Of a stretch of DNA of 64,000 nt, positions 11,507-55,502 are shown in pieces (position 1 is the stretch's first letter; each line of letters opens with the position of its first letter). The notes under the pieces were generated by a model, which ran no database searches, had not been told where the DNA came from, and saw only the letters and a list, made by a program, of their open reading frames with translations. The position numbers were made by a program, and so were the translations under genes. Source of the DNA: an uncultured Planctomycetales bacterium (lineage in GTDB: Bacteria > Omnitrophota > Gorgyraeia > Zapsychrales > JANLHA01); NCBI GenBank assembly GCA_964489065.1, contig CAZAXH010000007.1, positions 10,672 through 74,671 on the forward strand, written 5' to 3'.

Positions 11507-11510
11507 ACCT

Positions 11511-12140
11511 TTAATCCCTTTTATTGAATAATCGAACCAGGGCGATCATGTACCCCAAAACAATGAAAGCGCCGGGAGCCAGGACAAACACCAATATTCC
11601 GTCGCCGGCGATAAACTTGTGGCCGAAAACCGCACCGCTGCCTAAAAGTTCCCGGACAGTGCCCAAAAGCGTCAGGGCAAAGGTGAACCCCAGGCCCATA
11701 CTTAAACCGTCGATGCCCGAAAGCCAGACGGGATTCTTAGACGCGTACGCTTCCGCTCTCCCCAAAATAATACAGTTAACGACGATCAGGGGCAGAAACA
11801 GCCCCAGCTGCGCGTGCAAAGCCGGGATATACGCCGCCATCACCAGGTCCACGATCGTCACGAAAGAAGCGATCACCACGATAAAACAGGGGATCCGCAC
11901 ATCGTCCGGAACCAGGGATTTGATCAAAGACACCACCATATTGGACATCACCAGCACAAAAGTCGCGGCCAGTCCCATCCCCAAACCGTTGGCCGCGGAC
12001 GTCGTGACCCCAAGGGTGGGGCAGACTCCAAGGACCAGGACAAAAACAGGGTTTTCGCGGAGAAAACCTTTAGTGAAATTCTTCCAGATACTAATGGTCC
12101 GTCTCCTTTCTATAGGTGTCGTACGCCCGCTGAACCGCAT
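11511..12140 (-). CDS. rnfE: Rnf complex subunit E
   Basis: RnfE/NqrD motifs (WKNF...NPVFVLVLGVCPTLGVTTS). The track start at 12140 overlaps rnfG by about 50 nt. The true start is uncertain because there is no canonical start next to the conserved N-terminus. Confidence 0.8.
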   Translation of the reverse strand: MRFSGRTTPIERRRTISIWKNFTKGFLRENPVFVLVLGVCPTLGVTTSAANGLGMGLAATFVLVMSNMVVSLIKSLVPDDVRIPCFIVVIASFVTIVDLVMAAYIPALHAQLGLFLPLIVVNCIILGRAEAYASKNPVWLSGIDGLSMGLGFTFALTLLGTVRELLGSGAVFGHKFIAGDGILVFVLAPGAFIVLGYMIALVRLFNKRD

Positions 12141-12681
12141 CGCAAAAAGCCCGGGAGCTTATGGTCGCGGCCGTGATCGCGTCCACATCCCCCCCGTCTT
12201 TCTTCACCGTCAGTTTGAACACGGCCGGATTTTTATCTTTAAACTGGCGGCTGAAATCCGACTTCTTCCGGTCGATTTTATCCCCCAGTCCCGGGGTCTC
12301 TTTATGGTCGATGACCGCCACATCATAAATCGTCCCGTCCGGGAGAAATCCCACCATGAGCTTGATTTCCCCCCCAAAACCCTGCTGCGTCCAGGACTCG
12401 ACAGCAGTGCCGACCAGTTCCCCGGATTTTCTCACGGGATATAATGTGATACAACGGTCGTTCTGACACCGCTCAATTTTATCGTCAAAAGGCGAGCTGT
12501 CGAATTCCGGCACAACGTTCCTGATCGCCTCGGTCTTTTTATTCAATTCCGCCTGGGCCTTAGGGCCTTTTGTGACTTCATAAACAACCCCTAAAGCGGC
12601 GGAAGAAACAAATGTCGCCACGAAAAGAGTCACCACCAAATTGGCGAATGTCGCTTCCCTTTTCTTCATTCTATTCCCCAA
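12091..12681 (-). CDS. rnfG: Rnf complex subunit G (FMN-binding)
   Basis: RnfG/NqrC FMN-binding domain (ETPGLGDKI...AITAATISSRA). Apparent TTG start. Confidence 0.85.
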   Translation of the reverse strand: MGNRMKKREATFANLVVTLFVATFVSSAALGVVYEVTKGPKAQAELNKKTEAIRNVVPEFDSSPFDDKIERCQNDRCITLYPVRKSGELVGTAVESWTQQGFGGEIKLMVGFLPDGTIYDVAVIDHKETPGLGDKIDRKKSDFSRQFKDKNPAVFKLTVKKDGGDVDAITAATISSRAFCDAVQRAYDTYRKETDH

Positions 12682-13660
12682 ACCGTTTCGGTTTACAATA
12701 CCGGTTGATCAGCGGGACAAACGCGTTCATAATAAGAATCGCGAAAGACACCCCTTCCGGATAGGCGCCAAAAACCCGGATGGTGATGGACAGGATCCCG
12801 ATCCCGCAGCCGTAAATAAACATCCCCCGGGGGACCATGGGGGAGGTCACATAGTCCGTGGCCATAAAAATAGCGCCCAGGACAATTCCTCCGCTTAAAA
12901 CATGAAAAACCGGATCCATATATTGGGACGGGTTCATCAGCCACAAGCAACCGGAAAAAACAGCGGCGCTTCCTATCACGGCAACCGGGATATGCCAGGT
13001 AATGATTTTCCGGTACAGCAGATACGCGCCGCCCGCCAAAAGCGCCAGGGCGGACACTTCCCCCATAGACCCGGCTATCTTCCCCAACAGCATATCCGAA
13101 TAACGCGGCAATTCACCCATCAACTGCTGCGGCGTCATTCCGCTTTTTAAGCCTTCCTTAATAATCGCCAGCGGGGTGGCGGTGGTCACGCCGTCCACGG
13201 CCACCATCGCGCCGCTGAATGGCCTGGGCCACGTTGTCATGGCCGCCGGGAAAGACACCAGAAGGAAAACCCGGCCGACCAGCGCCGGATTAAACGGATT
13301 GTTCCCCAAACCGCCGAAAGACATTTTGGCCACCGCGATCGCAATGAAACTGCCCAGCACCACCATCCACCCGGGAAGCGTGGCCGGCAGGTTAAACGCC
13401 AGCAAAAGGCCCGTGACCGCCGCCGATCCGTCCGCGACCGACGGGTCTTTCTTAAATATATATTTCTGAATGATATATTCAAAAAACACAGCGGAGATAA
13501 CGGCCAAAGCCGAAACTTTCAGGGCCGCCCAGCCGAAGACGATAACCGACACAACCCAGGCGGGCATTAAAGCGATCAGGACCCAGGTCATAATCCTGCG
13601 GACCGACTCCCCGCCGTGGGTATGCGGCGACAAAGAAACCGTTAAAAGTGATGAATTCAT
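12671..13660 (-). CDS. rnfD: Rnf complex subunit D
   Basis: RnfD/NqrB family. The start was set at the ATG giving MNSSLLTVSLSPHTH, the conserved RnfD N-terminus with a ribosome-binding site. The track ORF was over-extended to 13765. Confidence 0.9.
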   Translation of the reverse strand: MNSSLLTVSLSPHTHGGESVRRIMTWVLIALMPAWVVSVIVFGWAALKVSALAVISAVFFEYIIQKYIFKKDPSVADGSAAVTGLLLAFNLPATLPGWMVVLGSFIAIAVAKMSFGGLGNNPFNPALVGRVFLLVSFPAAMTTWPRPFSGAMVAVDGVTTATPLAIIKEGLKSGMTPQQLMGELPRYSDMLLGKIAGSMGEVSALALLAGGAYLLYRKIITWHIPVAVIGSAAVFSGCLWLMNPSQYMDPVFHVLSGGIVLGAIFMATDYVTSPMVPRGMFIYGCGIGILSITIRVFGAYPEGVSFAILIMNAFVPLINRYCKPKRFGE

Positions 13661-15018
13661 TTTTGTTTTTGTTCCTTTAATCTTTTTAATACTTTTGCCT
13701 TTCCAATCCGGATATAATCCAAAAGCGGCCGGTGAGCCGGGCAGGCAAAACTGCAGCAGGCGCACTCACAACAGCTCAACAACCTTTCCTCAAAAGCGCG
13801 GTCCAGCCAATGCCGCTCAACAAGCGCCATCAAGAGATACGGTTCCAGCCCCAGCGGGCAGGCCGACACGCATTTCGCGCAGCGGATACAATTCTGCACG
13901 GGGCCGCGCCTGGCCTGGTCTTCCGGCAAGAGAAGAATCCCGGACATCCCTTTGGTGACCGGGATATCGGCCGAGTCCACGGCCCGGCCCATCATCGGGC
14001 CGCCGGCAATGATCTTGCCGGTCTTATCCGGAAGCCCCCCGGCCGCCTCAATAAGCTCCTGCACCGAAGTCCCGATCCTGACCCAAAAATTGGACGGATT
14101 TTTAAGCGCCGGCCCGGTCACGGTGACGGCGCGTTCCATCAACGGTTTGCTTTTTTGAACAGCTTCATAGACAGCGAAAACCGTCCCGACATTACACACC
14201 ACGCAGCCGACATCGCTGGGAAGCCCCCGGGGCGGAGGCGGGACCTCCCGGCCGGTCAACGCTTTAATAAGCTGCCGTTCCCCGCCCTGGGGATAGCAGA
14301 CTTTAAGCGATTCAACCCGGATACCGGAATCACATCGGGCGGCGGCTGTCATGATGTCCATCGCGTCCGGCTTATTTTCCTCGATACCGATACACGCATG
14401 ACCAATGCCCAAAGCTTTCAAAAGAATCCGGACGCCGGTCATAATCTCTTCACTTTTTTCAAGCATTAAACGGTGATCGGCGGTGAGATACGGCTCGCAT
14501 TCGACTCCGTTAATCAGCAGGAACTCAATGGTTTTATCTTTCGGGGGAGACAGTTTGACATGCGCCGGGAACGTCGCCCCGCCCAAGCCAACGATACCCG
14601 CTGCCGCGATCCTGGCGATAATGTCCTCCCGCTGCTCTGGGATTTCTTTCTTTACCCCCGGAGTCCTGTCAACACCGTCCTCCCAGACGTCCTGCTGAAC
14701 TTCAATAATCACAGCCGGAACCTTGTACCCGGTCACGTCTTTCACAAAATCAATCTTCTTCACCTTCCCGCTCACGGAGGAATGGATGTTCGCGGAAACA
14801 AATCCCCCGGCCCGGGCGATAAGCTGCCCGGTCTTCACAAAATCCCCCGCCTGAACCACAGCCGCGGCCGGAGCGCCGATATGCTGTGCAAGAGGAATGA
14901 CAACGGTTTTCGGCAATGGGAAAACAGATAAAGGTTTGTCCGCCGAAAGCTTGCTGTCGGGAGGATGAACGCCTCCCTGAGGAAAAGTTTTAGATGGACC
15001 GTTCTTCATAATAGTCAA
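13657..15018 (-). CDS. rnfC: Rnf complex subunit C (NADH-binding, 2x[4Fe-4S])
   Basis: RnfC-type domains. Two CxxCxxCxxxCP ferredoxin motifs near the C-terminus. ATGA overlap with rnfD. Confidence 0.9.
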   Translation of the reverse strand: MTIMKNGPSKTFPQGGVHPPDSKLSADKPLSVFPLPKTVVIPLAQHIGAPAAAVVQAGDFVKTGQLIARAGGFVSANIHSSVSGKVKKIDFVKDVTGYKVPAVIIEVQQDVWEDGVDRTPGVKKEIPEQREDIIARIAAAGIVGLGGATFPAHVKLSPPKDKTIEFLLINGVECEPYLTADHRLMLEKSEEIMTGVRILLKALGIGHACIGIEENKPDAMDIMTAAARCDSGIRVESLKVCYPQGGERQLIKALTGREVPPPPRGLPSDVGCVVCNVGTVFAVYEAVQKSKPLMERAVTVTGPALKNPSNFWVRIGTSVQELIEAAGGLPDKTGKIIAGGPMMGRAVDSADIPVTKGMSGILLLPEDQARRGPVQNCIRCAKCVSACPLGLEPYLLMALVERHWLDRAFEERLLSCCECACCSFACPAHRPLLDYIRIGKAKVLKRLKEQKQK

Positions 15019-15067
15019 ATTTTTATTTCAACAGCCGGGATTCGTCTTACTCCAGCCCGTCCCATTC

Positions 15068-15919
15068 TTACACGTTCACCTGCGCCGGCTCAAGTTTGGC
15101 TTTAATTTCCGGAAAATTGATTTCAAGAATCGCGTGCGTTGGACACACCGGCACGCATTTACGGCAAAGCCGGCATTTCCCGGGATCAATATACGCAAAA
15201 TTATTATTTAATGTAATGGCCTCAAAAGGACAGGCTTTCACGCACAACCCGCAGCCGATACAGGCCACCGTGCAGGCCTTTTTGGCGGCCGGCCCTTTGT
15301 CCTGATTCATACAGCCCACGAAAATACGCCGGTTCTTCGGCCCGCGTTTGCGCAACTCAATAAGAGACCGTGGACAAGCCTGGGCACAGGCCCCGCAGGC
15401 CGTGCATTTATCCTCGATGACAACCGGAAGCCCGGTGTCCGAATTCATATAAATCGCCTCAAATTTACATACCTGCACGCAATCGCCCATTCCGAGGCAG
15501 CCGTAAGCGCAGGCCGTGTCGCCGCCGTAAAGGGAAGCCGCGACAGCACAAACCGGGGCGCTGTCGTAAACGCTGGTCTTAGCGCGGTAAGCGTGTGTCC
15601 CCTGACAACGGACCACCGCGATTAAGGGGTCCTTTAGGGACACCTTCTTCCCCAGAATATCAGCCACCGCTTCCATACAGGCCTGGCCGCCGACCGGGCA
15701 ATATAAATCACTTAAATCCCCGGCCGCCACACAGGCCTCGGCAAAATTCCGGCAGCCCGGATATCCGCACCCCCCGCAATTAGCCAGCGGCAATGCCGCT
15801 TCGACTTGATCGACACGGGGGTCTCCCTGCACTTTAAACTTCTGGGCCACGACATATAGGATGACAGCGGACAGAATACCCAGGATACTTAATGTTGCGA
15901 CTGTAAAAATAATCGTCAT
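15068..15919 (-). CDS. rnfB: Rnf complex subunit B (polyferredoxin)
   Basis: N-terminal TM helix. CGGCGYPGC motif. Multiple 4Fe-4S CxxCxxCxxxCP motifs. Confidence 0.85.
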   Translation of the reverse strand: MTIIFTVATLSILGILSAVILYVVAQKFKVQGDPRVDQVEAALPLANCGGCGYPGCRNFAEACVAAGDLSDLYCPVGGQACMEAVADILGKKVSLKDPLIAVVRCQGTHAYRAKTSVYDSAPVCAVAASLYGGDTACAYGCLGMGDCVQVCKFEAIYMNSDTGLPVVIEDKCTACGACAQACPRSLIELRKRGPKNRRIFVGCMNQDKGPAAKKACTVACIGCGLCVKACPFEAITLNNNFAYIDPGKCRLCRKCVPVCPTHAILEINFPEIKAKLEPAQVNV

Positions 15920-16353
15920 GTTTTGAGATGATATTTTTTATAAAGTTTCATCTGGAAAGATCCCTGCAACCGGGGACTTAGTACGTGCAGAAGTATATAA
16001 TAAGGAACCAACATCAGCAACGCTCCGCCTCCGGCCAGGTACTCCCGGGTTGTTATCCCCGAAAAGACAAGGAGTGAAAAAACAACAAGGCCCAGCGGCA
16101 ATACATACGCAAAAAACAGCGCTTTAAAACCTTCTGATGCTTCCAGGATAATGTTGACTTCTTCCCCTATCGTGAAATCTTCCGGTTGGTCATGGAAGAT
16201 GAGGGTTTGATATTGTTTTTCTGCCAGTTCGCAATGTTGCCGGGACTCACATGAGCCGCAGGCCGATGTTCTTAAAAGCTCCACAAAAACATCACGGCCG
16301 CGGATTTCTTTAACGACACCCGGATGCTCAACATTCCGACTGGTATGAGTCAT
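15916..16353 (-). CDS. RseC/MucC-like (SoxR-reducing system) membrane protein preceding the rnf operon
   Basis: N-terminal Cys cluster (CGSCESRQHC) followed by two TM helices. It sits first in the rnf operon, as in many genomes. Confidence 0.6.
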   Translation of the reverse strand: MTHTSRNVEHPGVVKEIRGRDVFVELLRTSACGSCESRQHCELAEKQYQTLIFHDQPEDFTIGEEVNIILEASEGFKALFFAYVLPLGLVVFSLLVFSGITTREYLAGGGALLMLVPYYILLHVLSPRLQGSFQMKLYKKYHLKT

Positions 16354-16526: not shown

Positions 16527-16919
16527 TTATCTTCTGGAATGGGTACGCCTGGAAGATGATACCGCCGCGCCGGCTGTCCGTGACGGCTTGTTGCGGAGGG
16601 TCTTTTTATAATCAACAAATTTAATAGCAATCAGGAAAAACACGCCAGCAGCCTTTTTCTCCACCCGGACCACTTGGCCGTATCCTTTAAAAATATCAAG
16701 GATCCCGGACATCACCACGTTAACTTCAATGATGTCATCGACGTGCAAAGGGATATCGGAAAAGAACGCCAGCCCCAGGAAGCTCATATCATGCGTCGTG
16801 GATAAATGCCAGCGTTTATCCGCTTTCCGAATCCGTGTTTTTACGACCCGGAACTGGATGCTCAGAATACGTTTTGCGCGTAAAGCCTGCCTCATTTCGC
16901 CAATAGGCTGTTTAACCAT
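16527..16919 (-). CDS. PilZ domain protein (putative c-di-GMP receptor)
   Basis: RxxxR (LRAKR) and DxSxxG-like (DMSFLG) motifs at the appropriate spacing. About 130 aa. Confidence 0.5.
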   Translation of the reverse strand: MVKQPIGEMRQALRAKRILSIQFRVVKTRIRKADKRWHLSTTHDMSFLGLAFFSDIPLHVDDIIEVNVVMSGILDIFKGYGQVVRVEKKAAGVFFLIAIKFVDYKKTLRNKPSRTAGAAVSSSRRTHSRR

Positions 16920-17004: not shown

Positions 17005-17078
17005 GGGCTCTTGGTTTAATAAGCCGTAGCCTTGCTGCGGTTCATTGAGTTCAGAGCTTGCTCTAGGGTTTATAGCGT
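17005..17078 (-). repeat. Partial (5'-half) copy of the ~175-nt structured intergenic repeat, reverse orientation
   Basis: CTTGCTGCGGTTCATTGAGTTCAGAGCTTGCTCTAGGGTTTATA matches the reverse complement of the 5' half of the copies at 31388, 31700 and 39413. Confidence 0.55.
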
Positions 17079-17091
17079 TGATTTCCCGGGG

Positions 17092-25698: not shown

Positions 25699-26100
25699 TT
25701 AATCCTGATCGGATTTTTCCAGGACAGACGCCAATTTCGTCAATAAAACATTAGCATCTATGGGTTTAAGGATATAATCATCACAGCCTTTCTCATAGGC
25801 TTCCAGGAAACGTTTTTCATAAGCCGTGACAATAATGATAGGAATCCCGTCCCCCAAGGCAATTCCGGCATTTTTTTCACTTTCTCGGATTTTTTCAAGA
25901 ATTTCCAGCCCGTTAATCTCCGGGAGTTCGATATCCAACAGAATAAGGCTGTATTGGTCCCCTCGCTGCAGGGATAAATTATACGCGTCAATGGCTTCCT
26001 TCCCGCTGGCCGCGAAATCACATTCCGCAACTTCTCTTAAAATTTCGGCCAGCAATTGCCTGTTTTCAAAATTATCGTCCACAATGAGGATTTTATGCAT
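25699..26100 (-). CDS. Response regulator, receiver domain only (CheY-like)
   Basis: ILIVDD...LILLDIELP...KP receiver motifs. 133 aa. Confidence 0.85.
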   Translation of the reverse strand: MHKILIVDDNFENRQLLAEILREVAECDFAASGKEAIDAYNLSLQRGDQYSLILLDIELPEINGLEILEKIRESEKNAGIALGDGIPIIIVTAYEKRFLEAYEKGCDDYILKPIDANVLLTKLASVLEKSDQD

Positions 26101-26134
26101 TATGATCTCCCGGACACGTTATTATACCAACATC

Positions 26135-26506
26135 CTAAGGCGTTTTATTGATATATTCCGAAAATTTCTCGGATTCTCCTTTAAGCAAAACAAGATATTC
26201 AGCCAGCTTCACGGGGTCGGCCAGCCCCTTGACTTCAACGTGCATCAAGTTTTCCGCTTCATTAATACTGACCAGCCTTAAATTACTGGCGGTCCCCTTG
26301 ATCTCGTGCAGGATCCTTCGCATGGTTTCCTTATCCATGACCTGCAACGCGGCCTCCAAGTCCGCTATTTTTTCCTTAAGCGTCCCGGAAAAACTCTTGA
26401 CGATACGCAGATAAATATCCGGACGGATCTTTAAATCCGCGCTGATGCGTTCCGCATCAAGCTGAAATGGCTCATTCATGATGTCTCTATTCTCATTCAA
26501 CGGCAT
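26135..26506 (-). CDS. Hpt (histidine phosphotransfer) domain protein
   Basis: LHEIKGTASNL motif typical of the Hpt phospho-accepting His helix. About 120 aa, all-helical composition. Confidence 0.6.
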   Translation of the reverse strand: MPLNENRDIMNEPFQLDAERISADLKIRPDIYLRIVKSFSGTLKEKIADLEAALQVMDKETMRRILHEIKGTASNLRLVSINEAENLMHVEVKGLADPVKLAEYLVLLKGESEKFSEYINKTP

Positions 26507-26853
26507 TCCGGGCCGGCATTTTCACAAAACTGCTTCAGTTCTTTAAAAACCCCTGACAACACCGTGAATAATCCTGATAGTTCCGCCTGATTAATATTGC
26601 CTGATTTCACCATAACATTCATGGTACGCGCGACGGACGAAAGATCCGTGATGCGCATGTTGTCATAATCGCCTTTTAACCGGTGGGAGAGTTTCTGGAC
26701 CGTATCCCAGTCTTCCCCGTTCAGCGCCTTTCCCAAGGCGGCGATATCCGTGGTCGTCTGGACCACGGCCTTATTTAAAATCCGCAAATAAATATCCCGC
26801 CCGATTTTCAGCTGTTCACAATTTTTGTCCACATTGATCACTAGCCCCATCAC
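26497..26853 (-). CDS. Hpt domain protein (second, divergent)
   Basis: SHRLKGDYDNM motif. Similar size to the adjacent Hpt protein and overlaps its gene. Confidence 0.5.
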   Translation of the reverse strand: MMGLVINVDKNCEQLKIGRDIYLRILNKAVVQTTTDIAALGKALNGEDWDTVQKLSHRLKGDYDNMRITDLSSVARTMNVMVKSGNINQAELSGLFTVLSGVFKELKQFCENAGPECR

Positions 26854-26873
26854 GTCCTCCAGAAAAACATTGT

Positions 26874-27461
26874 TTATTTCAGCCGGGGTACCGCGCCCAT
26901 CGTCATATCCATGACCAGCCTTTTAACATTTTCTATTTCAAAAACAAGTTCCACCATGTCGAATTCATTATAACAAAAATCCACTCCGGCAAACGCGGAA
27001 TTGCGGTAATTCGTAAAATGGGACATTTCAAGCTCAATATAACCGGCGGACGAAATCTCGGATTTGAACCGGCCGGATATAATATTGCAAAGCGTTCCGC
27101 AGGAATCCTGCATAGCAGTCTCACTTTCATCGTCAATCGGAGGATACTTCAAAAGCTTCATCATCTTGGCAATATAATCCTGCTGGACATAAATGATCAA
27201 CGCGCCCAGCGTCTTTTTTTGAGCCATGTCTTTCTCGCTGGCATAAAAGTTAACGGCGGAAACATAGGTCGGCTCGTTGTCATATTTTTCCATCCCATCC
27301 GCCCGCATTCTCCCTTCGGACTCAATAATCTTTCTCCGGGTCTTCACCGGCTCTTTGGAAAAATGCACGTCGCCCCGCTCGTTAAACAAAGCCACAGTCC
27401 CCTGCTCCAGGAGGTCGGCAAATTTATCCAACTCTTTATTCTTTTTTCCAAGGAAGAACAA
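26874..27461 (-). CDS. Hypothetical protein, possibly CheX/CheC-like phosphatase fold
   Basis: Coding-like and in-operon with the phosphorelay genes. Weak resemblance (DSCGTLCNIISG) to CheX-family motifs only. Confidence 0.3.
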   Translation of the reverse strand: MFFLGKKNKELDKFADLLEQGTVALFNERGDVHFSKEPVKTRRKIIESEGRMRADGMEKYDNEPTYVSAVNFYASEKDMAQKKTLGALIIYVQQDYIAKMMKLLKYPPIDDESETAMQDSCGTLCNIISGRFKSEISSAGYIELEMSHFTNYRNSAFAGVDFCYNEFDMVELVFEIENVKRLVMDMTMGAVPRLK

Positions 27462-27482
27462 AACTCACATCCTTTCAAGAAA

Positions 27483-27893
27483 TCAACCCGTCGTTTTTAA
27501 CTGCACGAATGGATAAATAACATCAAGCAAAGATTCCGGGGTGTACGGCTTCACAACATAACCGACGAGGTTCGGATTAACCGCCCAGGCCTTTTTTTTA
27601 TTCTCATCCGTCCCGGAAGCAGTCACCATGATGATCGCTTTATTAGCCACCTGCGGCACTTTAACCACCGCCTCCATAAATTCCATCCCCGACATGCGGG
27701 GCATCTGCCAATCCAAGAGAATCAGCCCCACTTCTTTATAGTGCGTCCCCAAAATCTCGATCGCCTCTTCTCCTGTCCTGGCCTGCAGAAAATTATTCTG
27801 GACCCCGGCTCCCTTAAGGACCTCAATTAACAATTCCCTCTCCAGGTCAGAATCATCCACCACTAAAATTTTGCCATGATTTAATTCTTCCAC
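27483..27893 (-). CDS. Response regulator, receiver domain only
   Basis: ILVVDDS...LILLDWQMP...VVKP receiver motifs. Confidence 0.85.
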   Translation of the reverse strand: MEELNHGKILVVDDSDLERELLIEVLKGAGVQNNFLQARTGEEAIEILGTHYKEVGLILLDWQMPRMSGMEFMEAVVKVPQVANKAIIMVTASGTDENKKKAWAVNPNLVGYVVKPYTPESLLDVIYPFVQLKTTG

Positions 27894-27926
27894 AAGAATA
27901 GTCCTTTGGTTTAAAAATATCCCGCG

Positions 27927-30230
27927 TCACATTTTGGTATTGCGAATAATTTTTTCCTTCAATTCATCCACCCCAAACGGTTTGGGAAGATAATCCGTCA
28001 TCCCGGCTTCCAGGCAACGTTCTTTTTCGTCTTCAAGCTCCGCCGCTGTCAGGGCGACAATGGGCAACTTTCTTTTCAACTCGTTCCGTATAATTTTTGT
28101 CGCTTCGACGCCCCCCATCACCGGCATCTGCAAATCCATAAAACAGATGCTGTAATCATTCTGCCGCAAGAAATCAATCGCTTCTTGGCCGTTCGTCGCG
28201 TAATCACAGGTACACCCCAGCATCTCAAAATGGATTTTTAACAACTCCATATTCGGGACGCTGTCTTCCGCGACCAGAACTTTGATCCCGGAGCAGGAAA
28301 TTTTCTGGATCATCTCATCCGACAAAACACGCGTGGTGTCAACTTTTTCGCCCAGGACACGCTGAAGCACATCCCATAACTCCTCCGGGATAATCGGCTT
28401 CGGCAAAAAGCTGTCAAAGCCGGCATGGGTAAACTCCGCAGACGTTTCCGACTTCACATCCGATGACACCCCAATCAGTTTAATGTTTTTATAGTGTTCC
28501 TGCTGCTTCAGCTTATACGCCAGCATATACGCCTGCTTTTCCGGGAGAAGCAAATCGACAAAAATCAAAACCGGTAACGTCTGTTGCTCTTTTTCCCGCG
28601 ACAACAGCAATTCAGAGGCCTGTTTGGCTGACTGACAGACTGCCAGGACGCTCAGCCGCGCGGCCTCGAACTGGGGAAGATACTGGCGCAAAGACGTTTC
28701 GTGCATGTCAACAATCAAGACTTCGGCTCCGGCATTTTCTTTCAGCACCACCACATCCTCTTTCGGAGGCTGGTCTGCGGCCTCATCGAAATGAATCGTA
28801 AAAAGGAAACGGCTCCCTTCCCCCAGTTTTGATTCCACCCATATCGCCCCGCCCATGGTTTCCACAAAGGTTTTACAAAGCGCCAACCCCAGGCCGGAAC
28901 CGCCGTAAAGGCGTGTTGTCGAGTCGCTGGCCTGCGTGAACGTCTCAAAGACAGCATCCTGGCGGTCGTCCGGAATCCCTATCCCGGTATCCCGGACGAC
29001 AAATTTAATCGCCTGCCCGGGCACCGCAAACCCATTCTGACTGGCAAGGCTGACCTCCAAGCCGATTTCCCCGTGTTCAGTGAACTTAATCGCGTTATCG
29101 ATCAAATTAATAAAAATCTGTTTCAGGCGGGTAGGGTCCCCCAGAAGGAACCGCGGGACATCCGGAGCGACATTAAAATACAGGTTAATGGGTTTGCTGG
29201 CCAGGCGGGTACGGATAATTTTAAACACCTCTTCGATAACATAATCAAGATGAAACGGAATCTTTTCCAACTTGAGCTTACCGGATTCCACTTTCGAAAA
29301 ATCAAGGATGTCATTCACGATCTCAAGCAACATGCGCCCGCTGACAATAATCGTATTGAGATGCTCATTCTGTTTGCTGTTGAGGCCGCTTTCCTTCAGA
29401 AGATCCGTGAAGCCCATAATGGCGTTGATCAACGTCCGGATTTCATGCGACATATTCGCCAAATATTCACTTTTAGCCCGGGCTTCTTCCTGGGCCTGCT
29501 GAGTCAACTTAATGGCCAGTTCCCGCTCCTTGATAAGTTCCCGTTGCCGCTCATGCAACTTACTCTGTGCCACTTTCAGTTCACGTCCGGTTTCTTCATA
29601 ATCCTGCAAAAGTTTGGAAAGCACGCTCACCTCACACTCGATGCGATCCTGGGCCTGCTCGAGCTGTTGCTTTAATAAAGCGCAGGCTGTCATGTCCGGC
29701 TCAAAGTTAATTTTGGGGATATTCCGGACCACCGGTTTAACCGGGCGGGCGGCCAGGTGGCTTTTACGGATCGTATCCTCAATAGCGGTAATAATACTTC
29801 TCACGTCAAAATATTCGCTTTTCAGTTCCCCGCCGTTGGCGATCTGCTCATCCAGAAGTTCCAACAATTTCTGCAGGGCTTCAATGGCCTGCGTGATCAG
29901 CAGGATCATCTCATTGTCCAGCGGCAAGAGATTCTTGCGGAACTTATCCAACAAGGTTTCCGAAGAGGCGGTGAGCGCGAAAATGTCGTGCAACTCCAAA
30001 AAATCCGCAAGGCCTTTAATGGTATGAAACGTTTTAAATACGTCTTCCACCGCTTCCCGGTCAGACGGGACGGTTTCAAGGATCAACAAGGCGTTCCTCG
30101 CGGCAATGAGATGACGTTGGGCTTCCCGGGAGAAGTCCGTGAGCATCTCTGTCCCTTCCGAGAGGTCCAATTGGGGAACCTGAGGCAGAAATTCTTTTTT
30201 TTCTGCGGTCATGCTAACCGAACTCCACAA
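27927..30230 (-). CDS. Hybrid sensor histidine kinase with N-terminal Hpt domain, coiled coil, HisKA/HATPase core and two C-terminal receiver domains
   Basis: Hpt motif FHTIKGLADFLEL. H-box MSHEIRTLINAIMGF. N, G1 and G2 boxes (DNAIKFT..DTGIGI..GGSGLGL). Receiver motifs (VLVAEDSVPN...CFMDLQMP). No TM segments, so likely cytoplasmic. Confidence 0.85.
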   Translation of the reverse strand: MWSSVSMTAEKKEFLPQVPQLDLSEGTEMLTDFSREAQRHLIAARNALLILETVPSDREAVEDVFKTFHTIKGLADFLELHDIFALTASSETLLDKFRKNLLPLDNEMILLITQAIEALQKLLELLDEQIANGGELKSEYFDVRSIITAIEDTIRKSHLAARPVKPVVRNIPKINFEPDMTACALLKQQLEQAQDRIECEVSVLSKLLQDYEETGRELKVAQSKLHERQRELIKERELAIKLTQQAQEEARAKSEYLANMSHEIRTLINAIMGFTDLLKESGLNSKQNEHLNTIIVSGRMLLEIVNDILDFSKVESGKLKLEKIPFHLDYVIEEVFKIIRTRLASKPINLYFNVAPDVPRFLLGDPTRLKQIFINLIDNAIKFTEHGEIGLEVSLASQNGFAVPGQAIKFVVRDTGIGIPDDRQDAVFETFTQASDSTTRLYGGSGLGLALCKTFVETMGGAIWVESKLGEGSRFLFTIHFDEAADQPPKEDVVVLKENAGAEVLIVDMHETSLRQYLPQFEAARLSVLAVCQSAKQASELLLSREKEQQTLPVLIFVDLLLPEKQAYMLAYKLKQQEHYKNIKLIGVSSDVKSETSAEFTHAGFDSFLPKPIIPEELWDVLQRVLGEKVDTTRVLSDEMIQKISCSGIKVLVAEDSVPNMELLKIHFEMLGCTCDYATNGQEAIDFLRQNDYSICFMDLQMPVMGGVEATKIIRNELKRKLPIVALTAAELEDEKERCLEAGMTDYLPKPFGVDELKEKIIRNTKM

Positions 30231-30311
30231 TGTGTAAATGAAAGAAACTCAAAAATCAATATAGCATCAACTCCTGATAAAAAAAAGCATTGATCATAAT
30301 ATTTACGGATA

Positions 30312-31370
30312 TTAGCTGATACACCGGTTTCGTATGTCCTCGATGAGCGGCAGAATCTCCAGGAAGCGGTCCACAATAATGGGAGAAAAATGGGTTTCTT
30401 TCATATGCCGAATCTCCTCCACCGCCGCGTCAACCGGCCAGGCCTGCTTATACGGCCGGTCCGAGGTTAACGCGTCAAAAACATCACAAATACTGCAGAT
30501 CTGGCCGACCGTAGGGATTTCCTCACCCCGGAGCTGTTTGGGGTATCCGGTCCCGTCCCATTTTTCATGATGCGTAATGCAAATGATCTGCGCCATTTTC
30601 ATAACCGGAGAACTGCTGCCGGCCAAGAGCTTGGCGCCGATGACGGTATGAGTTTTCATGATTTCATATTCTTCCTGCGTCAAGCGGCCCGGTTTCAGCA
30701 GAATGGCGTCAGGAATACCGAGCTTGCCGATATCATGAAGCGGGCTGGCGTGTAACAAAAGGTCGCACTCCGGCAGACTCATCCCCATCGCCACCCCGAA
30801 TTTCTGGCAATACTGGCTCATCCGGATGATGTGCAACCCTGTATCGCTATCGCGAAATTCCGCAGCCTGGGCAAGTCGCCGGATGATGTCCAACTGAGTT
30901 TCCCGCAGTTCTTTCGTCCGCTCCTGGACTCTGCTTTCTAGGATCTTGTTCTGATTTTTGACTTCCATATGCAAACACCGCATTTCAATCATGTTGTGGA
31001 TGCGGAAAATGATTTCCATATTTTCATAAGGCTTATTAAGGAAATCCGTCGCACCGGACTGCAACGCCCGCAAACGGACATCAGAACTTTTCTCCGAAGA
31101 CAGGGCCAGGATGGGAAGATAATGTTCCTTACGGAATTCCGCCAGTTGTTCCATGACCTGAAACCCGTCAAGGTGCGGCATAAATATGTCCAGGACGATG
31201 ATCTCCGGCTGAAAATCCCGGACCAACCCAAGGACTTTCAGGGAATCATTGGTATATTCCACGTTCTTAAATCCTTCTTCAGCGAGGATTTTTTTTAAAT
31301 AGAGCCCGTGAAGTTTCTGGTCATCCACAATCAGGATTCGGGAATGAGCCATTTGTTCTTTTGTGTACAT
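30312..31370 (-). CDS. Response regulator with HD-GYP domain (c-di-GMP phosphodiesterase, RpfG family)
   Basis: N-terminal receiver (ILIVDDQ...VLDIFMP). HD motif (HDIGKLGIPD). HHEKWDGTGYP signature. Confidence 0.85.
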   Translation of the reverse strand: MYTKEQMAHSRILIVDDQKLHGLYLKKILAEEGFKNVEYTNDSLKVLGLVRDFQPEIIVLDIFMPHLDGFQVMEQLAEFRKEHYLPILALSSEKSSDVRLRALQSGATDFLNKPYENMEIIFRIHNMIEMRCLHMEVKNQNKILESRVQERTKELRETQLDIIRRLAQAAEFRDSDTGLHIIRMSQYCQKFGVAMGMSLPECDLLLHASPLHDIGKLGIPDAILLKPGRLTQEEYEIMKTHTVIGAKLLAGSSSPVMKMAQIICITHHEKWDGTGYPKQLRGEEIPTVGQICSICDVFDALTSDRPYKQAWPVDAAVEEIRHMKETHFSPIIVDRFLEILPLIEDIRNRCIS

Positions 31371-31387
31371 AACGTTAATCTCTTAAA

Positions 31388-31560
31388 TCAGAGGTATAAA
31401 CCCCAGAGCAAGCTCTGGACTCAATTAACCGCAGCAAGCTGCGGGGTATTAAACCAACATCCTTCAACTCGTTCGCTTGAGCTCTTTCGCCTGAAGGATC
31501 AATTCGCATTTTTAGTTTACACTCCCTTAGGTCGTGTAAACTAAATGCTCATTGAATCAA
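31388..31560 (+). repeat. Structured intergenic repeat, copy 1 (~175 nt)
   Basis: Near-identical to the copies at 31700 and 39413. Contains tandem hairpins CCAGAG-CAAG-CTCTGG and CCGCAG-CAAG-CTGCGG, an ATCCTTC...GAAGGAT stem, and a long 3' hairpin GCATTT..AGTTTACAC-loop-GTGTAAACT.AAATGC. Confidence 0.75.
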
Positions 31561-31699
31561 CCCCATACCAGAACACGAGCATATTTCTTCCATGTCCGGA
31601 GCAGACAAAAAGCAATAAATAGTCTTATTTTAGTGTGCGCGTAGCCGGAATGTAAGGAAAATTACGGTTTTTTTGAATCCCGTTAAAGATTTTTAAAAT

Positions 31700-31870
31700 C
31701 AAAGGTATAAACTCCAACGCAGGCTCTGGACTCAATGAACCGCAGCAAGCCGCAGGGTATGAACCCGACATCCTTCGGCTCGTTCGCTTGAGCTCTTTCG
31801 CCTGAAGGATCAATTCGCATTTCTAGTTTACACTCCCTTGGGTCGTGTAAACTAAATGCTCATTGAATCA
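31700..31870 (+). repeat. Structured intergenic repeat, copy 2 (more degenerate 5' hairpins)
   Basis: About 88% identical to copy 1. It lies 140 nt downstream of copy 1 in the same orientation and overlaps the last ~20 nt of surE. Confidence 0.75.
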
Positions 31871-36224: not shown

Positions 36225-37850
36225 TCATTGGTTTAAAAGCAACGGAGATCCCCGCCGCATCTTTTTCTGATTCATCCGGATAATCCTGGGCGTCCCATCA
36301 TGACGGGCCGACACGAAAACAAACATCGGATTCTCATTGTCAAAATAGTTCAAATAAATCATTTCCGCGAAACTGTAGCGTTTGGCGATCGGGTCCTGTT
36401 CGCGGAGACGATAGGGGTACATAAAATTCCCCGGGAAATCGTAATCGATGTAAAACGAAAACCCGGGCTGATCGCCCTCCCGCATGATCATCGACTCTAC
36501 GGCTTTGACGAGCTCGCGGCTCGGCGCGTACCACTGGGAGATGCGCCTATTCATGGAGTATACAAGACGACCATTGTGCAGCATCTGCCCCACAATCAAA
36601 ATGATAAAGGCGCACTTTATCGCCCGGGTCAAACGGTCGCTTGGCAGAGCCTCGAAGTTGACGGCCGAATACATAAAAACAACAAGGAAACACCAGATGA
36701 TGTAATGATAGATCACGGTCCCTCCGAGGGCAAAAGCCACTCCCCGCTCCTGCACCCGCGCGGATGAAATAACCGCGCCCCAGCATAAGGCCATACCTCC
36801 CAGTAAAGCCAGGAAGCCCAGCCGTTTTTTAAAGAATTCCCAGGTCCCGCTTCGTACGGCCAAAAATCCCCAACATAAAACAAATAAAGTCCCGAGCCAT
36901 AATTGCCACTCCGAAAAACCCATAACCGGGAAGATATCCTGCCGGTTGGCTAATTCCGCCCGGCCCAGGACATGGATAATTTCATATTTCCCGGGAAAAA
37001 GCGCCGAATAGATCCACCACCCCATGGCGAGAAAGGTGTTCTTGACGATTTGGACAAAATCCGGCAGGCCCGCCCCTTTAACCGGGTGCAGGCGATGGAA
37101 TCCCAGCGCCACATAGTTATATGCGCTGGCAACCATAAAAATGGCCGGGGGGATCAACAACCACAAAGACCGCCAGCGCCCGTGTTCCTTCCAAGAAACA
37201 GTCAAAAACAAATAAACAAAAAATAAAACAGAAAGAACCACACTGATTTCATAAGTCAAGGCGGCCACGGTCATTCCAGCGGACGCGATCATCAAACGGT
37301 GTGTTTGCCGACGTTTTCCTTCCTGATACAGCCATATCTGATTCAGGCTCATCAGGGTCATCATCACCGCCAAAAGAATACTGTTGACCGCGTGCCAGAC
37401 AACCGTTTCCATATTCATAAAAAGAAAAGAAAAATAGCCCGCCATCATAATGGCGAATAAACTGGAGCCGATATTGAGTAAAAGTCTTAATAACATTCCA
37501 ACGATGATCAGGTGCATAACAAGTCCGGTCACCTGCCACAGCACGAAATTATACCCAAAAAAAAACTTCTCTGATCCCATAAGAAAATACGCGCCGGGCC
37601 TGAAGATCAAATAATCCCCCGGGGCAAAAGTCCGGGAGCGCGACCAGTCAAAAGATTGGATAGCCAGGGGAACCCAATCCTGTTTATAAGCCATGTCAGC
37701 CAGATAAAACAGATGATCCGCCCGAGGCATATGGGAAAACGACGGGAAATATATAAGAATATTGCCCGCGACGATCATCAAAAACAGAAAAAAAATCCAT
37801 GTCCGGTTTGCGGTGATTTTCATAAACATCTTGCCCGGGACAGCCCCCAC
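36225..37850 (-). CDS. Polytopic integral membrane protein (at least 12 predicted TM helices), possible GT-C-type glycosyltransferase
   Basis: Long series of hydrophobic helices with short loops. No soluble catalytic motif recognised. The start is ambiguous (MFMKIT or MKIT). Confidence 0.55.
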   Translation of the reverse strand: MGAVPGKMFMKITANRTWIFFLFLMIVAGNILIYFPSFSHMPRADHLFYLADMAYKQDWVPLAIQSFDWSRSRTFAPGDYLIFRPGAYFLMGSEKFFFGYNFVLWQVTGLVMHLIIVGMLLRLLLNIGSSLFAIMMAGYFSFLFMNMETVVWHAVNSILLAVMMTLMSLNQIWLYQEGKRRQTHRLMIASAGMTVAALTYEISVVLSVLFFVYLFLTVSWKEHGRWRSLWLLIPPAIFMVASAYNYVALGFHRLHPVKGAGLPDFVQIVKNTFLAMGWWIYSALFPGKYEIIHVLGRAELANRQDIFPVMGFSEWQLWLGTLFVLCWGFLAVRSGTWEFFKKRLGFLALLGGMALCWGAVISSARVQERGVAFALGGTVIYHYIIWCFLVVFMYSAVNFEALPSDRLTRAIKCAFIILIVGQMLHNGRLVYSMNRRISQWYAPSRELVKAVESMIMREGDQPGFSFYIDYDFPGNFMYPYRLREQDPIAKRYSFAEMIYLNYFDNENPMFVFVSARHDGTPRIIRMNQKKMRRGSPLLLNQ

Positions 37851-39303: not shown

Positions 39304-39412
39304 GGCTTAACCTTTCGTTAAAATCCGGGTAGGTAATAAGAATGTAAGTAGTAGCGTTGGAATCCATATCGCTATACGAGCCTTGAACTGCATGAATATC
39401 CTATGACAAATC

Positions 39413-39584
39413 AAAGGTATAAACCCCAGAGCAAGCTCTGGACTCAATGAACCGCAGAACGCGCTGCGGGGTATTCAACCAGCATCCTTCGGCTCGTTCG
39501 CTTTAGCTCTCTCGCGCTGAAGGATCAATTCGCATTTCTAATTTACACCCCCTTGGGTCGTGTAAACTAAATGCTCATTGAACG
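39413..39584 (+). repeat. Structured intergenic repeat, copy 3
   Basis: About 90% identical to copy 1. The second hairpin loop is changed (CCGCAG-AACGCG-CTGCGG) while the stem is preserved. Confidence 0.75.
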
Positions 39585-39845: not shown

Positions 39846-41282
39846 TTAAAAACTGTACGGGAAACGGAGTTCAAACGTCATATCGGGAGCATCCGTTGTC
39901 AGCCCAACACTAACGGCAAAATCCATGGAAGCCCGTTCACTGAGCGTCCAGTTAAAACCGGTCTTAAAATTAGCCGCGTTTTGAAAAGACCCAGGGACAT
40001 CACGCCCTTCCCGGTTCATTTTGCCGGTCACCGTGTGATCAAAAGAAAAGTTAATCGCTGTCTGATAACTCAAAGCGATGGCCGTGCCCAGGCTGTAGCC
40101 TATGGAATCCCCGGGGTCTACCTCTCCAAAATTCTCGATATCACCGCGCGGAATGTTGTAGGTATAATTAAGGCTCCCAAAAACAACCGCCGGGTCACTA
40201 GCTTTAGCCGCAACCAAGGCGCCACTCACCGCCCAGTGCCCGGTTCCCAAAGCAATATCTGTATTATAGGGTTCATCGCCTGTATTGGATTTGACGGACA
40301 GGCTCGCCACGAGATCAGGCATCATCCCGTGTTCCCACCCGATTTGACGGCTGATGGAAACCTGGATGTCCCCCAGCCCGCCTTTTGAATCAGTCTGATC
40401 ATAGGTCGTGCTGTCCGTGTTGGTAATGCGGTTATATTCAAAGCGGCCCGGGATGCGGACTTCGGTCTGCAGATTATGGAAAAGCCCGTATTTAAACGCC
40501 CAGGTATGGATAAATACGTCTCGTTTGACTTTCTCCGTATTTATGTCTCCCACGACCAGAATAGGAAGGATACTAAAACCATTAATATTAATCCGATTGG
40601 AAGAAAAATGCGCATAAGTTAAGCTCGGTTCAAACTGCAATTTACCTTTCGGAAGAAGGATACCCCCTTTTTGGACAAGCGTCCTCTCAATCGAATCGAC
40701 CCGTTCCTGAGATCCCGCAGCTTCGGTTTCTCCGGGTAAGTCTTCCTGTTTCTTAGAACTTTTCTCTGCAGCAATCGCCGAAGCCAAAAGCATAACATCC
40801 TGGGAAGGAACCGTCATCTTCCCCCCGCCCGGCCACGGAACATCCGATTCGATACCCTTCCCGACAACGACACGATCCAACTCCTCGTCGGTTAAACCAG
40901 TATTATGTTGGTCAACCGCTTCCCGGATTGTCCGACGGACAGCTTCGCGGATTAAGTCCTCATTCAAGGAAACGGCTTCACTCTGTTGAGAAAGCCCCAT
41001 TTCTGAGCTGGCCCCTTCCACCGCCGGGTTCGCTTTCTGAGCCCAAAAAGACTCCACTTCCTTCCGCACGGCTTCCCTGATAAAAGGTTCCATTTGGGCC
41101 AACACTTCGGCGCGCACGGCCCCCTGCATGTCACGGCGGATTTTAGCCGATAGGATGTCGATATCTATCTCGGACCGGGAGGAACGAAAATGAGCAACCA
41201 ACAAGACCGCGACGACCACCACAGCCGCAAATGCCATTATATAAAAGGGATTCTTTCTAAATATCATAATATTCTTTACCAC
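39846..41282 (-). CDS. N-terminally anchored outer-membrane beta-barrel protein with periplasmic helical domain (FapF-like transporter candidate)
   Basis: N-terminal hydrophobic anchor or signal. A helical segment (AEVLAQMEPFIREAVRKEVESFWAQ). A C-terminal beta-rich region with alternating aromatics that ends in ...FELRFPYSF, an OMP-type terminal Phe. Confidence 0.5.
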   Translation of the reverse strand: MVKNIMIFRKNPFYIMAFAAVVVVAVLLVAHFRSSRSEIDIDILSAKIRRDMQGAVRAEVLAQMEPFIREAVRKEVESFWAQKANPAVEGASSEMGLSQQSEAVSLNEDLIREAVRRTIREAVDQHNTGLTDEELDRVVVGKGIESDVPWPGGGKMTVPSQDVMLLASAIAAEKSSKKQEDLPGETEAAGSQERVDSIERTLVQKGGILLPKGKLQFEPSLTYAHFSSNRININGFSILPILVVGDINTEKVKRDVFIHTWAFKYGLFHNLQTEVRIPGRFEYNRITNTDSTTYDQTDSKGGLGDIQVSISRQIGWEHGMMPDLVASLSVKSNTGDEPYNTDIALGTGHWAVSGALVAAKASDPAVVFGSLNYTYNIPRGDIENFGEVDPGDSIGYSLGTAIALSYQTAINFSFDHTVTGKMNREGRDVPGSFQNAANFKTGFNWTLSERASMDFAVSVGLTTDAPDMTFELRFPYSF

Positions 41283-41959
41283 TCATTAGTAAAAATCGTG
41301 GTCCTGAGCTGAAACGGGTTGAAGAAACGTTTAATCGCCCGATAGTCTGTCATACGGATATCGTCCTGGTCTACTTTTAAAGCATAGTCCCCTTTAATTT
41401 CTTGGCCGGGACGCTCAACCACGAACCCGATTCCATTCGTCCACATCGACATAAATTTCTCTTTTTTCATGGTCATGTTTCCGACCGCCGGGTCCGCGAT
41501 GAATACCCTGTCGCCGAAAACGCCCTTAACAACAACAAAATGCCGGTAATTCTTAAATTTAATTGGCACCAGGACCGGTTTCCCCAGGGATTTTAAATAC
41601 TCGAAATCCATCCGGTATCCGGTCACAAGATATCCCCTGGACTGTGCGAATTTTTTTAAATCAAACAATGAAAATCCCTGCCGGGCAATCACCTTGTCCA
41701 AAGGGATAGTATTGAGCATGGAATTAATTATTTCAACTTCAGGGATAGGATCATTCAAGTAGTAATGAAACAGGGTGGCTAAACCGGCCGCGCCGCAGCT
41801 GTAATCCAGGCTTTGTGTTACGACATTTTCCTGCCGGATTTCTTTCAAGCACCGGACTTTCTTGTTAAACCCCATGCCCCCGGCAGAAAAATTGGCCGCA
41901 TGCGCGGCCACCGTAAGGTTCGAGAGGACACACAGACTGAAAAATATTTTCTTTATCAT
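41276..41959 (-). CDS. Standalone periplasmic C39-family cysteine peptidase-like protein (FapD-like)
   Basis: Signal peptide. Catalytic-Cys context typical of C39 peptidase domains (SLDYSCGAAGLATL). Later His and Asp are present (YRHFVVV...DPA). About 227 aa with no ABC-transporter fusion. Confidence 0.65.
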   Translation of the reverse strand: MIKKIFFSLCVLSNLTVAAHAANFSAGGMGFNKKVRCLKEIRQENVVTQSLDYSCGAAGLATLFHYYLNDPIPEVEIINSMLNTIPLDKVIARQGFSLFDLKKFAQSRGYLVTGYRMDFEYLKSLGKPVLVPIKFKNYRHFVVVKGVFGDRVFIADPAVGNMTMKKEKFMSMWTNGIGFVVERPGQEIKGDYALKVDQDDIRMTDYRAIKRFFNPFQLRTTIFTNEW

Positions 41960-50672: not shown

Positions 50673-50685
50673 CGTGAAAACATGA

Positions 50686-50716
50686 GCCCTTCGAATCTTT
50701 CGAAGGGCTTTTTTCT
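50686..50716 (+). terminator. Intrinsic terminator forming the riboswitch expression platform
   Basis: GCCCTTCGAA-TCTT-TCGAAGGGC followed by TTTTTT. It lies 14 nt before the downstream ribosome-binding site. Confidence 0.65.
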
Positions 50717-50729
50717 TAAGGAGTGGGGC

Positions 50730-55472: not shown

Positions 55473-55502
55473 CTTCTCCCTTTCCTCCTTTCAAGGATTC
55501 AA

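Follow-up and report, generated by a model that had tools for sequence, protein, structure and literature searches.

In Xanthomonas, the hybrid histidine kinase RpfC, a membrane sensor with a HisKA core, a receiver and a C-terminal histidine phosphotransfer (Hpt) domain, is paired with RpfG, in which a receiver (REC) is joined to an HD-GYP domain, and the output of the pair is hydrolysis of cyclic di-GMP (c-di-GMP), not DNA binding. Additional free Hpt proteins, single-domain receivers and a CheX-fold protein are not known to be part of the Rpf system. In the Bacillus sporulation phosphorelay, phosphoryl groups pass from a kinase through a receiver and a phosphotransferase to an output receiver, and an auxiliary protein acts on a single-domain receiver; this relay includes Rap and Spo0E phosphatases. 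The chemotaxis core CheA-CheY-CheX combines a CheX-fold protein with a P1-type Hpt domain and a CheY-like receiver. The ShkA-ShpA-TacA pathway of Caulobacter crescentus has a separate Hpt protein downstream of the kinase and ends in the transcription factor TacA. ShkA is a cytosolic kinase with the order DHp-CA-pseudoreceiver-receiver, and c-di-GMP activates it via the pseudo-receiver (PMC6969517, PMC7010744). Here we describe a cluster of seven genes at positions 25699-31370 of a 64,000-nucleotide stretch (hereafter the window; contig CAZAXH010000007.1) from an uncultured bacterium of the phylum Omnitrophota. We consider it probable that the cluster encodes a cytoplasmic, branched His-Asp phosphorelay in which an intact REC-HD-GYP phosphodiesterase is the only enzymatic output. 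An initial annotation of this DNA had proposed a relay that ends in c-di-GMP hydrolysis, and the intact Hpt histidines and HD-GYP residues described below support this as the best reading.

The cluster shares with RpfC/RpfG the pairing of a HisKA hybrid kinase that has receiver and Hpt domains with a REC-HD-GYP protein, as well as the type of output. It differs in that the Omnitrophota kinase is soluble and sensor-less and carries its Hpt domain, which is CheA-P1-like, at the N-terminus; this comparison is based on established knowledge of the Rpf system and not on sequence comparison. The likeness to ShkA-ShpA-TacA lies in a sensor-less cytosolic hybrid kinase with the same domain order, a pseudo-receiver that has lost the acidic pair and kept the Asp, and a separate Hpt protein. 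In contrast, ShkA has no N-terminal Hpt domain, its pathway does not end in a phosphodiesterase, and its c-di-GMP-binding residues and DDR linker motif are not kept in Omnitrophota. Because these ligand contacts and the linker are not conserved, the resemblance to ShkA is an architectural analogy only. The general scheme of the Bacillus relay recurs as well, although the cluster has no Spo0B or Rap homologues. The three parts of the CheA-CheY-CheX core also occur together here, whereas the kinase core is class I (HisKA) and not CheA-type. All parts of the cluster come from known families, its logic is RpfC/RpfG-like and ShkA-ShpA-like, and the known framework of two-component signaling is unbroken. 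A literature search found no paper on this cluster, or on two-component or c-di-GMP signaling in Omnitrophota.

A seven-gene cluster conserved in Omnitrophota

The bacteria of the phylum Omnitrophota are uncultured and mostly ultra-small, and many are thought to depend on hosts or prey (PMC10066038). Seven consecutive open reading frames (ORFs) on the minus strand fill the region, as had been annotated (Table 1). Their order is REC-HD-GYP, hybrid kinase, REC_a, CheX-fold protein, HptA, HptB and REC_b, with intergenic gaps of 81, 33, 21, 20, -10 and 34 nucleotides (nt). Domains of the seven proteins were called with Pfam (gathering scores, 27 bits for CheX and 24.6 bits for Hpt). The two stand-alone receivers, the two stand-alone Hpt proteins and the receiver-HD-GYP output of the initial annotation were all recovered, and both Hpt proteins scored above the cutoff. 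As it had also claimed, a DNA-binding output is absent; Pfam finds no such domain in any of the seven proteins. No hydrophobic 19-mer above Kyte-Doolittle 1.5 occurs in any of them, and therefore all seven are predicted to be soluble and membrane anchoring of any component was ruled out. Upstream lie the housekeeping genes surE, mutY and NAD kinase, and downstream lie genes for citrate synthase, leucyl aminopeptidase, NfeD, an SPFH protein and fumarase. The ORFs of the window that were scanned with Pfam include no CheW, receptor or other chemotaxis genes.

One genome per GTDB species was scanned, which yielded 28 loci. These are all in metagenome-assembled genomes of Omnitrophota, some deposited as "uncultured Planctomycetales", and all named homologues of the CheX-like protein are likewise from Candidatus Omnitrophota. 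The order HD-GYP, kinase, REC_a, CheX-like, Hpt (one or two genes) and REC_b is shared by 28/28 loci, over which identity of the CheX-like protein falls from 98% to 54%, and the HD-GYP gene was found in every locus with a long enough contig. Where contigs reach far enough, surE precedes the cluster, and citrate synthase and aminopeptidase genes follow it. Such an arrangement is far beyond chance, and this is strong evidence that the seven genes are one conserved, operon-like unit with a real function in Candidatus Omnitrophota, as judged from gene order. Because the order is so uniform and the cluster lies beside central-metabolism genes, it is probably a core decision circuit for c-di-GMP, a molecule that switches other bacteria between attachment and motility. 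One Omnitrophota lineage has two tandem REC_a genes in an otherwise standard cluster (L011, 4383-5246).

Table 1. Positions of the cluster genes, their domains and other features in the window (kinase domain bounds follow the 761-amino-acid numbering)
Feature	Position (nt)	Strand	Description
REC-HD-GYP response regulator	30312..31370	-	352 aa; Response_reg 80.8 bits, HD_5 102.9 bits (Pfam; HD also matched)
REC of HD-GYP regulator	31002-31337	-	aa 12-123; Response_reg
HD-GYP domain	30381-30869	-	aa 168-330; HD_5
Soluble hybrid histidine kinase	27927..30230	-	Pfam Hpt, HisKA, HATPase_c, two Response_reg
Kinase CheA-P1-like Hpt	29838-30152	-	aa 21-125
Kinase coiled coil and DHp	29286-29630	-	aa 195-309
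Kinase CA	28782-29261	-	aa 318-477
Kinase pseudo-receiver REC1	28356-28724	-	aa 497-619
Kinase REC2	27939-28283	-	aa 644-758
REC_a, CheY-like receiver	27483..27893	-	136 aa; Response_reg 70.2 bits
CheX-fold protein	26874..27461	-	195 aa; Pfam CheX 25.4 bits, just under the 27-bit gathering score
HptA	26497..26853	-	117-118 aa; Pfam Hpt 29 bits
HptB	26135..26506	-	121-123 aa; Pfam Hpt 26.6 bits
REC_b, stand-alone receiver	25699..26100	-	133 aa; Response_reg 77.6 bits
PilZ protein	16527-16919	-	130 aa, stand-alone; RxxxR (RQALR) and DxSxxG (DMSFLG) canonical
c-di-GMP-I riboswitch	50559-50660	+	60.4 bits
Small ORF after riboswitch	50682-50993	+	87-103 aa, 22-70 nt past riboswitch
172-nt repeat, two copies	31385-31556, 31696-31867	-	Directly upstream of HD-GYP gene
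Repeat copy	39408-39582	-	Upstream of B12/radical-SAM gene
Partial repeat copy	17011-17084	+	Beside PilZ gene

The predicted HD-GYP phosphodiesterase

Residue conservation was counted in alignments of 19-27 orthologues per protein, in which the phospho-accepting His and Asp residues and the catalytic boxes of the kinase are invariant or nearly so. The receiver of the HD-GYP regulator keeps its active site (D16, D17, D61, S91 and K113) in 17-19 of 19 orthologues, and the phospho-accepting D61 in 18. In the HD-GYP domain, E171, H180, H212, D213, H241, H267, D296 and D299, the metal ligands, are invariant in all 19. The HHExxDGxGYP signature reads HHEKWDGTGYP here; D272, G273, G275, Y276 and P277 are invariant (19/19), E269 is kept in 17-19 of the sequences and H268 in 18, with a single H268Q. 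This substitution is the sole departure from intact ligands and GYP motif, and the fear that the metal-binding residues might be degenerate did not come true. The domain aligns over its full length with PmGH (PDB 4mcw; 194 bits), an active HD-GYP phosphodiesterase of Persephonella marina; all metal ligands and the motif HHExWDGTGYP are identical between the two. They differ in the N-terminal regulatory domain, which is a canonical receiver in the Omnitrophota protein. The second-best PDB match, the cGAMP phosphodiesterase 5z7c, scores 114 bits. Thus, the HD-GYP enzyme is predicted to be catalytically intact and to act as a c-di-GMP phosphodiesterase. Membership in the NosR family of REC-HD-GYP proteins (NCBIfam NF053512) was rejected at 135.9 bits against a cutoff of 400.

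A sensor-less hybrid kinase with a CheA-P1-like Hpt domain

The kinase ORF has 767 amino acids, and its likely start is M7 at nt 30212, which gives the 761 amino acids of a public gene call on identical DNA; residue numbers in the text follow the 767-residue form. An AlphaFold2 (AF2) model built with 44 sequences (pLDDT 80) shows a four-helix Hpt domain, a disordered linker, a long coiled coil that runs into DHp, then CA, REC1 and REC2, and contains no PAS, GAF or other sensor fold. H262, E263, N379, the G1 box DxGxG and the G2 box GGxGxG are invariant in 20/20 orthologues, and so is H69, the phospho-accepting residue of the Hpt domain. The best PDB matches of this Hpt domain are CheA P1 domains, namely 2ld6 (E = 2e-8), 1tqg and also 3kyi, and at least 90% of orthologues have the Glu that is typical of P1. 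The kinase is nevertheless no CheA, because the rest of the protein is class I; the P1-like domain alone is CheA-like (class II), the core is HisKA plus HATPase_c, and a CheW domain is absent. A class I hybrid kinase that has a CheA-P1-type N-terminal Hpt domain and lacks a sensor is unusual. The whole kinase scores 399 bits against the BarA model, under its equivalog cutoff. As a side observation, the H box (29430-29450, minus strand) reads SHEIRTL in place of the usual HE[IL]RTP; all 20 orthologues taken from the loci have Leu in place of the conserved Pro, and 44 database homologues all share the H-E-I-R-T core.

The two receivers of the kinase are not equivalent. REC2 has invariant D656, D699, T728 and K750, and position 655 is Glu in 19/20 and Asp in one. 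In REC1 the acidic pair is not conserved (D, T or S at the first position, various residues at the second), while D559 is kept and K611 is present in just 15/20. REC1 is therefore regarded as a pseudo-receiver. It is the region of lowest conservation in the kinase, and it is dispensable in two lineages, L024 and L029, because their kinases of about 600-630 amino acids have a sole receiver that matches REC2. Thus, the soluble kinase with an N-terminal Hpt domain and two receivers was correctly described with regard to its domains, which Pfam recovers, but only one of these receivers is competent.

Stand-alone Hpt proteins and receivers

All three Hpt domains, those of HptA, HptB and the kinase, score above the Pfam gathering score, and their His and Gly residues are invariant. 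H57, K60 and G61 of HptA are invariant in 26/26 orthologues. In HptB, H67 and G71 are invariant in 22/22, and K70 is Lys in 21 and Arg in one. Loss of the conserved His, which would have spoken against the Hpt assignments, is therefore not observed in any of the three proteins. HptA and HptB share 30% identity (E = 2e-12) and are both unlike the Hpt domain of the kinase; a search of the PDB with the HptA sequence gave no matches. In a neighbor-joining tree of all Hpt proteins of the clusters, clean A and B clades were obtained. Both genes are present in 18 loci, always A before B. Nine loci have a single Hpt gene, which belongs to clade A in six of them (L009, L019, L020, L022, L023 and L025) and to clade B in the other three (L018, L024 and L029); L021 ends after the first Hpt gene and is outside this count. 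The low identity and the two deep clades indicate that the duplication is ancient, and they rule out a recent duplication. Either copy can be lost. The pair had been called unusual in the initial annotation, and it is better described as an ancient, conserved paralogy. The overlap of 10 nt between the two genes holds for the first ATG of HptB; it is 4 nt in the public gene call, and relatives have small gaps between the genes instead.

The full set of receiver active-site residues is present in REC_a, REC_b, the HD-GYP receiver and REC2 of the kinase, and absent from REC1. In REC_a, D13, D14, D61 and K115 are invariant in 27/27, and T91 is Thr in 26 and Ser in one. In REC_b, D9, D56 and T92 are invariant in 27/27, position 8 is Asp in 22 and Glu in five, and K112 is Lys in 26 with one gap. 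Nearly all of the best PDB matches of REC_a are CheY proteins, which is weak evidence for closeness to CheY because the PDB is rich in CheY.

Proposed phosphorelay

From the domain content, residue conservation, predicted folds and synteny of the cluster, we infer a relay, including each transfer step, the order of transfer, the sign of HD-GYP regulation, the input and the HD-GYP enzyme as the only endpoint. The sensor-less hybrid kinase would autophosphorylate on H262 of DHp, and the phosphoryl group would move to D699 of the competent C-terminal receiver REC2. From there it would pass to H69 of the kinase's own P1-like Hpt domain, to the free HptA and HptB, or to both, and the Hpt domains would in turn donate it to the receivers of the HD-GYP enzyme (D61), REC_a and REC_b. 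Phosphorylation would alter the phosphodiesterase activity of the HD-GYP protein and c-di-GMP would be lowered, a change that would be sensed by the PilZ proteins and c-di-GMP riboswitches that this genome encodes. REC_a and REC_b may form a side branch, take up phosphate as a sink or provide feedback. The CheX-fold protein would bind one of these two receivers via its conserved helix face and would then drain phosphate or tether the receiver to an Hpt protein. The most likely point of input is the variable pseudo-receiver, the coiled coil of the kinase, or the Hpt proteins, to which other kinases would supply phosphoryl groups.

Several points weigh against this relay. The kinase has no recognizable input domain. 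Three Hpt domains and four competent receivers permit many wirings, including direct CheA-style phosphorylation of the P1-like Hpt domain by CA, and the partner specificity of phosphotransfer is not readable from sequence. 3'3'-cGAMP (a cyclic GMP-AMP) can be the preferred substrate of HD-GYP enzymes; that the c-di-GMP enzyme PmGH scores above the cGAMP enzyme 5z7c is a hint about the substrate and not a test of specificity. Pfam scans of the large ORFs found no GGDEF or EAL protein in the window. Finally, the CheX-like protein lacks the acidic residue that is reported to be required for the phosphatase activity of CheC/CheX/FliY (PMC3035606), which makes its role as a drain doubtful.

The CheX-fold protein: phosphatase or adaptor

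The AF2 model of the CheX-like protein (pLDDT 92.3) has its top Foldseek matches in the CheX structures 3hm4, 1squ and 1xko with probability 1.0, followed by CheC, FliY and FliM. The best 11 PDB matches are all CheX or CheC-like (E = 4e-9 to 4e-7), and the target-normalized TM-score to CheX structures is about 0.7. With CheC/CheX/FliY proteins (1xko, 3hm4, 3hzh) it shares the fold, the long helix with a conserved Asn, and a gene that adjoins that of a CheY-like receiver. It also has an acidic loop before the helix, YPPIDDE, comparable to YDDFDDEE of Borrelia CheX. It differs from them in a TxxN motif, in about 40 additional residues and in belonging to a separate, small family (198 representatives at E <= 1e-3 among 1.84 billion proteins). 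In alignments with Borrelia CheX and with distant family members, T123-x-x-N126 falls on E96-x-x-N99 of CheX. Of the 120 closest homologues, 119 have TxxN, and the form seen most often in distant members of the family is ExxN; N126 is invariant. The acidic residue is reported to be required for the phosphatase activity of CheZ and of CheC/CheX/FliY (PMC3035606), and a phosphatase role is therefore uncertain where Thr replaces it. Of the earlier assignment as a possible CheX-like phosphatase, the fold stands and the acidic catalytic residue does not. The protein may act as a phosphatase that is weak or relies on the amide alone, or as an adaptor that docks a receiver.

The second possibility deserves attention. 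The CheA P2 domain docks a receiver for P1, and in a comparable way the CheX-fold protein, without dephosphorylating, would hold a CheY-like receiver beside an Hpt protein. In addition to the TxxN motif itself, three observations agree with such a role. First, the best-conserved parts of the protein are the helix and the YPPxDDE loop, which face the receiver in CheX. Second, natural fusions tie the domain physically to the relay and make receiver docking plausible: P0123 joins a CheX-like domain to Hpt, in a locus of the order kinase-REC-REC-[CheX-Hpt]-small ORF, and P0134 joins one to REC. Third, the Hpt domain of the kinase is P1-like and REC_a is CheY-like. On the other hand, N126, the catalytic Asn, does not vary, an amide side chain is sufficient for the activity of Rap phosphatases (PMC3035606, PMC12887009), and Vibrio vulnificus CheX is active despite a divergent active-site geometry (PMC12887009). 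We regard a non-hydrolytic adaptor as a tentative possibility. Its corollary is that the cluster would consist of a P1/CheY/CheX module taken from chemotaxis and added to a class I hybrid kinase. The full version, a chemotaxis-derived cassette repurposed for second-messenger control in which the CheX-fold protein serves the stand-alone Hpt proteins as a P2-like, non-hydrolytic adaptor, seems unlikely to us. If true, it would mean a new function for the CheC/CheX/FliY fold, and the Omnitrophota, which are largely host-dependent, would share a core c-di-GMP regulator throughout the phylum. Separately, a distant member of the CheX-like family that keeps ExxN lies in an array of CheX-like, REC, CheX-like and CheX-like genes (L031, 4442-7025; 193, 129, 193 and 299 amino acids), that is, paralogous CheX-fold genes around one receiver.

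Alternative wirings

The Hpt proteins could also be a hub. Several kinases converge on HptB in Pseudomonas, and by analogy other sensor hybrid kinases encoded elsewhere in the genome would feed HptA and HptB here, while the local kinase and the single-domain receivers would mainly remove phosphate, as sinks or phosphatases, and so adjust how much REC-HD-GYP is phosphorylated. It fits this picture that the local kinase has no sensor domain, that two free Hpt paralogues accompany the fused one, and that DHp has an HExxT motif, which is typical of bifunctional kinase/phosphatases. Furthermore, many Omnitrophota dCache/PAS hybrid kinases are found among distant homologues (e.g., P0376). However, the invariant ATP-binding boxes of the local kinase argue for real kinase activity, and the tight linkage of kinase and Hpt genes throughout the phylum suggests a self-contained pathway. 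There is perhaps a small chance that this wiring is the true one, and we prefer the relay driven by the local kinase. A second two-component pair lies at 61285-62886 on the minus strand, where a 397-residue REC-HisKA-HATPase_c kinase gene is followed by that of a 127-residue stand-alone receiver. This sensor-less kinase pair could exchange phosphate with the Hpt proteins of the cluster.

A negative feedback loop in which c-di-GMP binds REC1, frees REC2 and turns the kinase on, so that the HD-GYP enzyme is activated, is very improbable: the sensor-less DHp-CA-pseudoREC-REC order as in ShkA (PDB 6qrj, the second-best PDB match of the whole kinase at 206 bits), the loss of the acidic pair with retention of the Asp as in ShkA Rec1 (PMC6969517) and a conserved linker motif before REC2 would fit it, but the ShkA contacts Y338, R344, S347 and Q351 correspond to F, I, E and D and are variable among 44 orthologues (R324 is outside the alignment with the Omnitrophota kinase), the DDR linker motif is DEM, and REC1 is weakly conserved and lost in two lineages. 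We therefore set aside ShkA-like binding of c-di-GMP by REC1, for which the architecture fits, as a remote alternative.

The branched relay that ends in the HD-GYP enzyme thus combines known parts in a way that is unusual for its combination and phylum-wide conservation, for a P1-type Hpt domain on a class I kinase, and for a fixed TxxN in a CheX fold outside chemotaxis. For the two-component field, the oddities are a sensor-less kinase of this type, two anciently diverged Hpt shuttles of which either can be lost, and a CheX-fold protein whose catalytic motif has changed and whose relatives include fusions with Hpt or REC.

c-di-GMP context in the window

A PilZ protein with canonical motifs and a c-di-GMP-I riboswitch were found in the window (Table 1), and therefore the organism uses c-di-GMP. 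The PilZ gene is downstream of a thioredoxin-NHL gene and upstream of RseC/Rnf genes. Both elements had been noted as near the cluster. They are real, but they lie about 9 kb (PilZ) and about 19 kb (riboswitch) away from it, beyond genes of the tricarboxylic acid cycle, a protease and other unrelated genes. We dropped proximity as a functional link at these distances, with neither GGDEF nor EAL proteins present in the window. To call the window a concentrated second-messenger control region was thus an overstatement. The riboswitch may regulate a small protein that is secreted or lies on the cell surface. The ORF that follows the riboswitch has a signal-peptide-like start, MKNVLWILLAVTIVAACGLKAFA, and converges on the gene of a 918-residue protein that has a hydrophobic, signal-peptide-like N-terminus and weak SdrD_B-like matches at its C-terminus.

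A dispersed repeat and other features of the window

The 481-nt spacer between surE and the HD-GYP gene contains two copies of a 172-nt element, 311 nt apart. Its copies are about 90% identical and intergenic, and it folds stably (-61.6 kcal/mol, z = -4.7); it has no match in Rfam. The element is absent from the orthologous loci of all other species, where this spacer is down to about 29-143 nt. It was found in 19 stretches of metagenomes, most of which belong to a single activated-sludge assembly; it is often located at the ends of contigs, and sub-modules are duplicated in some copies. We ruled out a conserved leader RNA for the operon, since the element is absent at orthologous loci and dispersed in this organism. 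For the same reason it is a strain-specific dispersed repeat and not a conserved regulator of the cluster. Repetitive extragenic palindrome (REP)-like elements, miniature inverted-repeat transposable element (MITE)-like elements and a small RNA family are candidates for its type.

Elsewhere in the window, several ORFs of 219-845 amino acids have no Pfam match at E <= 0.001 (36225-37850, 42570-45107, 53936-56885 and 58552-61209, minus strand). Some of them adjoin a gene with a C39 peptidase domain (41276-41959) and an outer-membrane MetA-like gene (39846-41282). At 4976-7973 on the minus strand, a gene for an extracytoplasmic function (ECF) sigma factor is followed by one for an 807-residue zf-HC2 anti-sigma-like protein with vWA and YfbK_C domains, and an Rnf complex cluster lies at 10931-16353.

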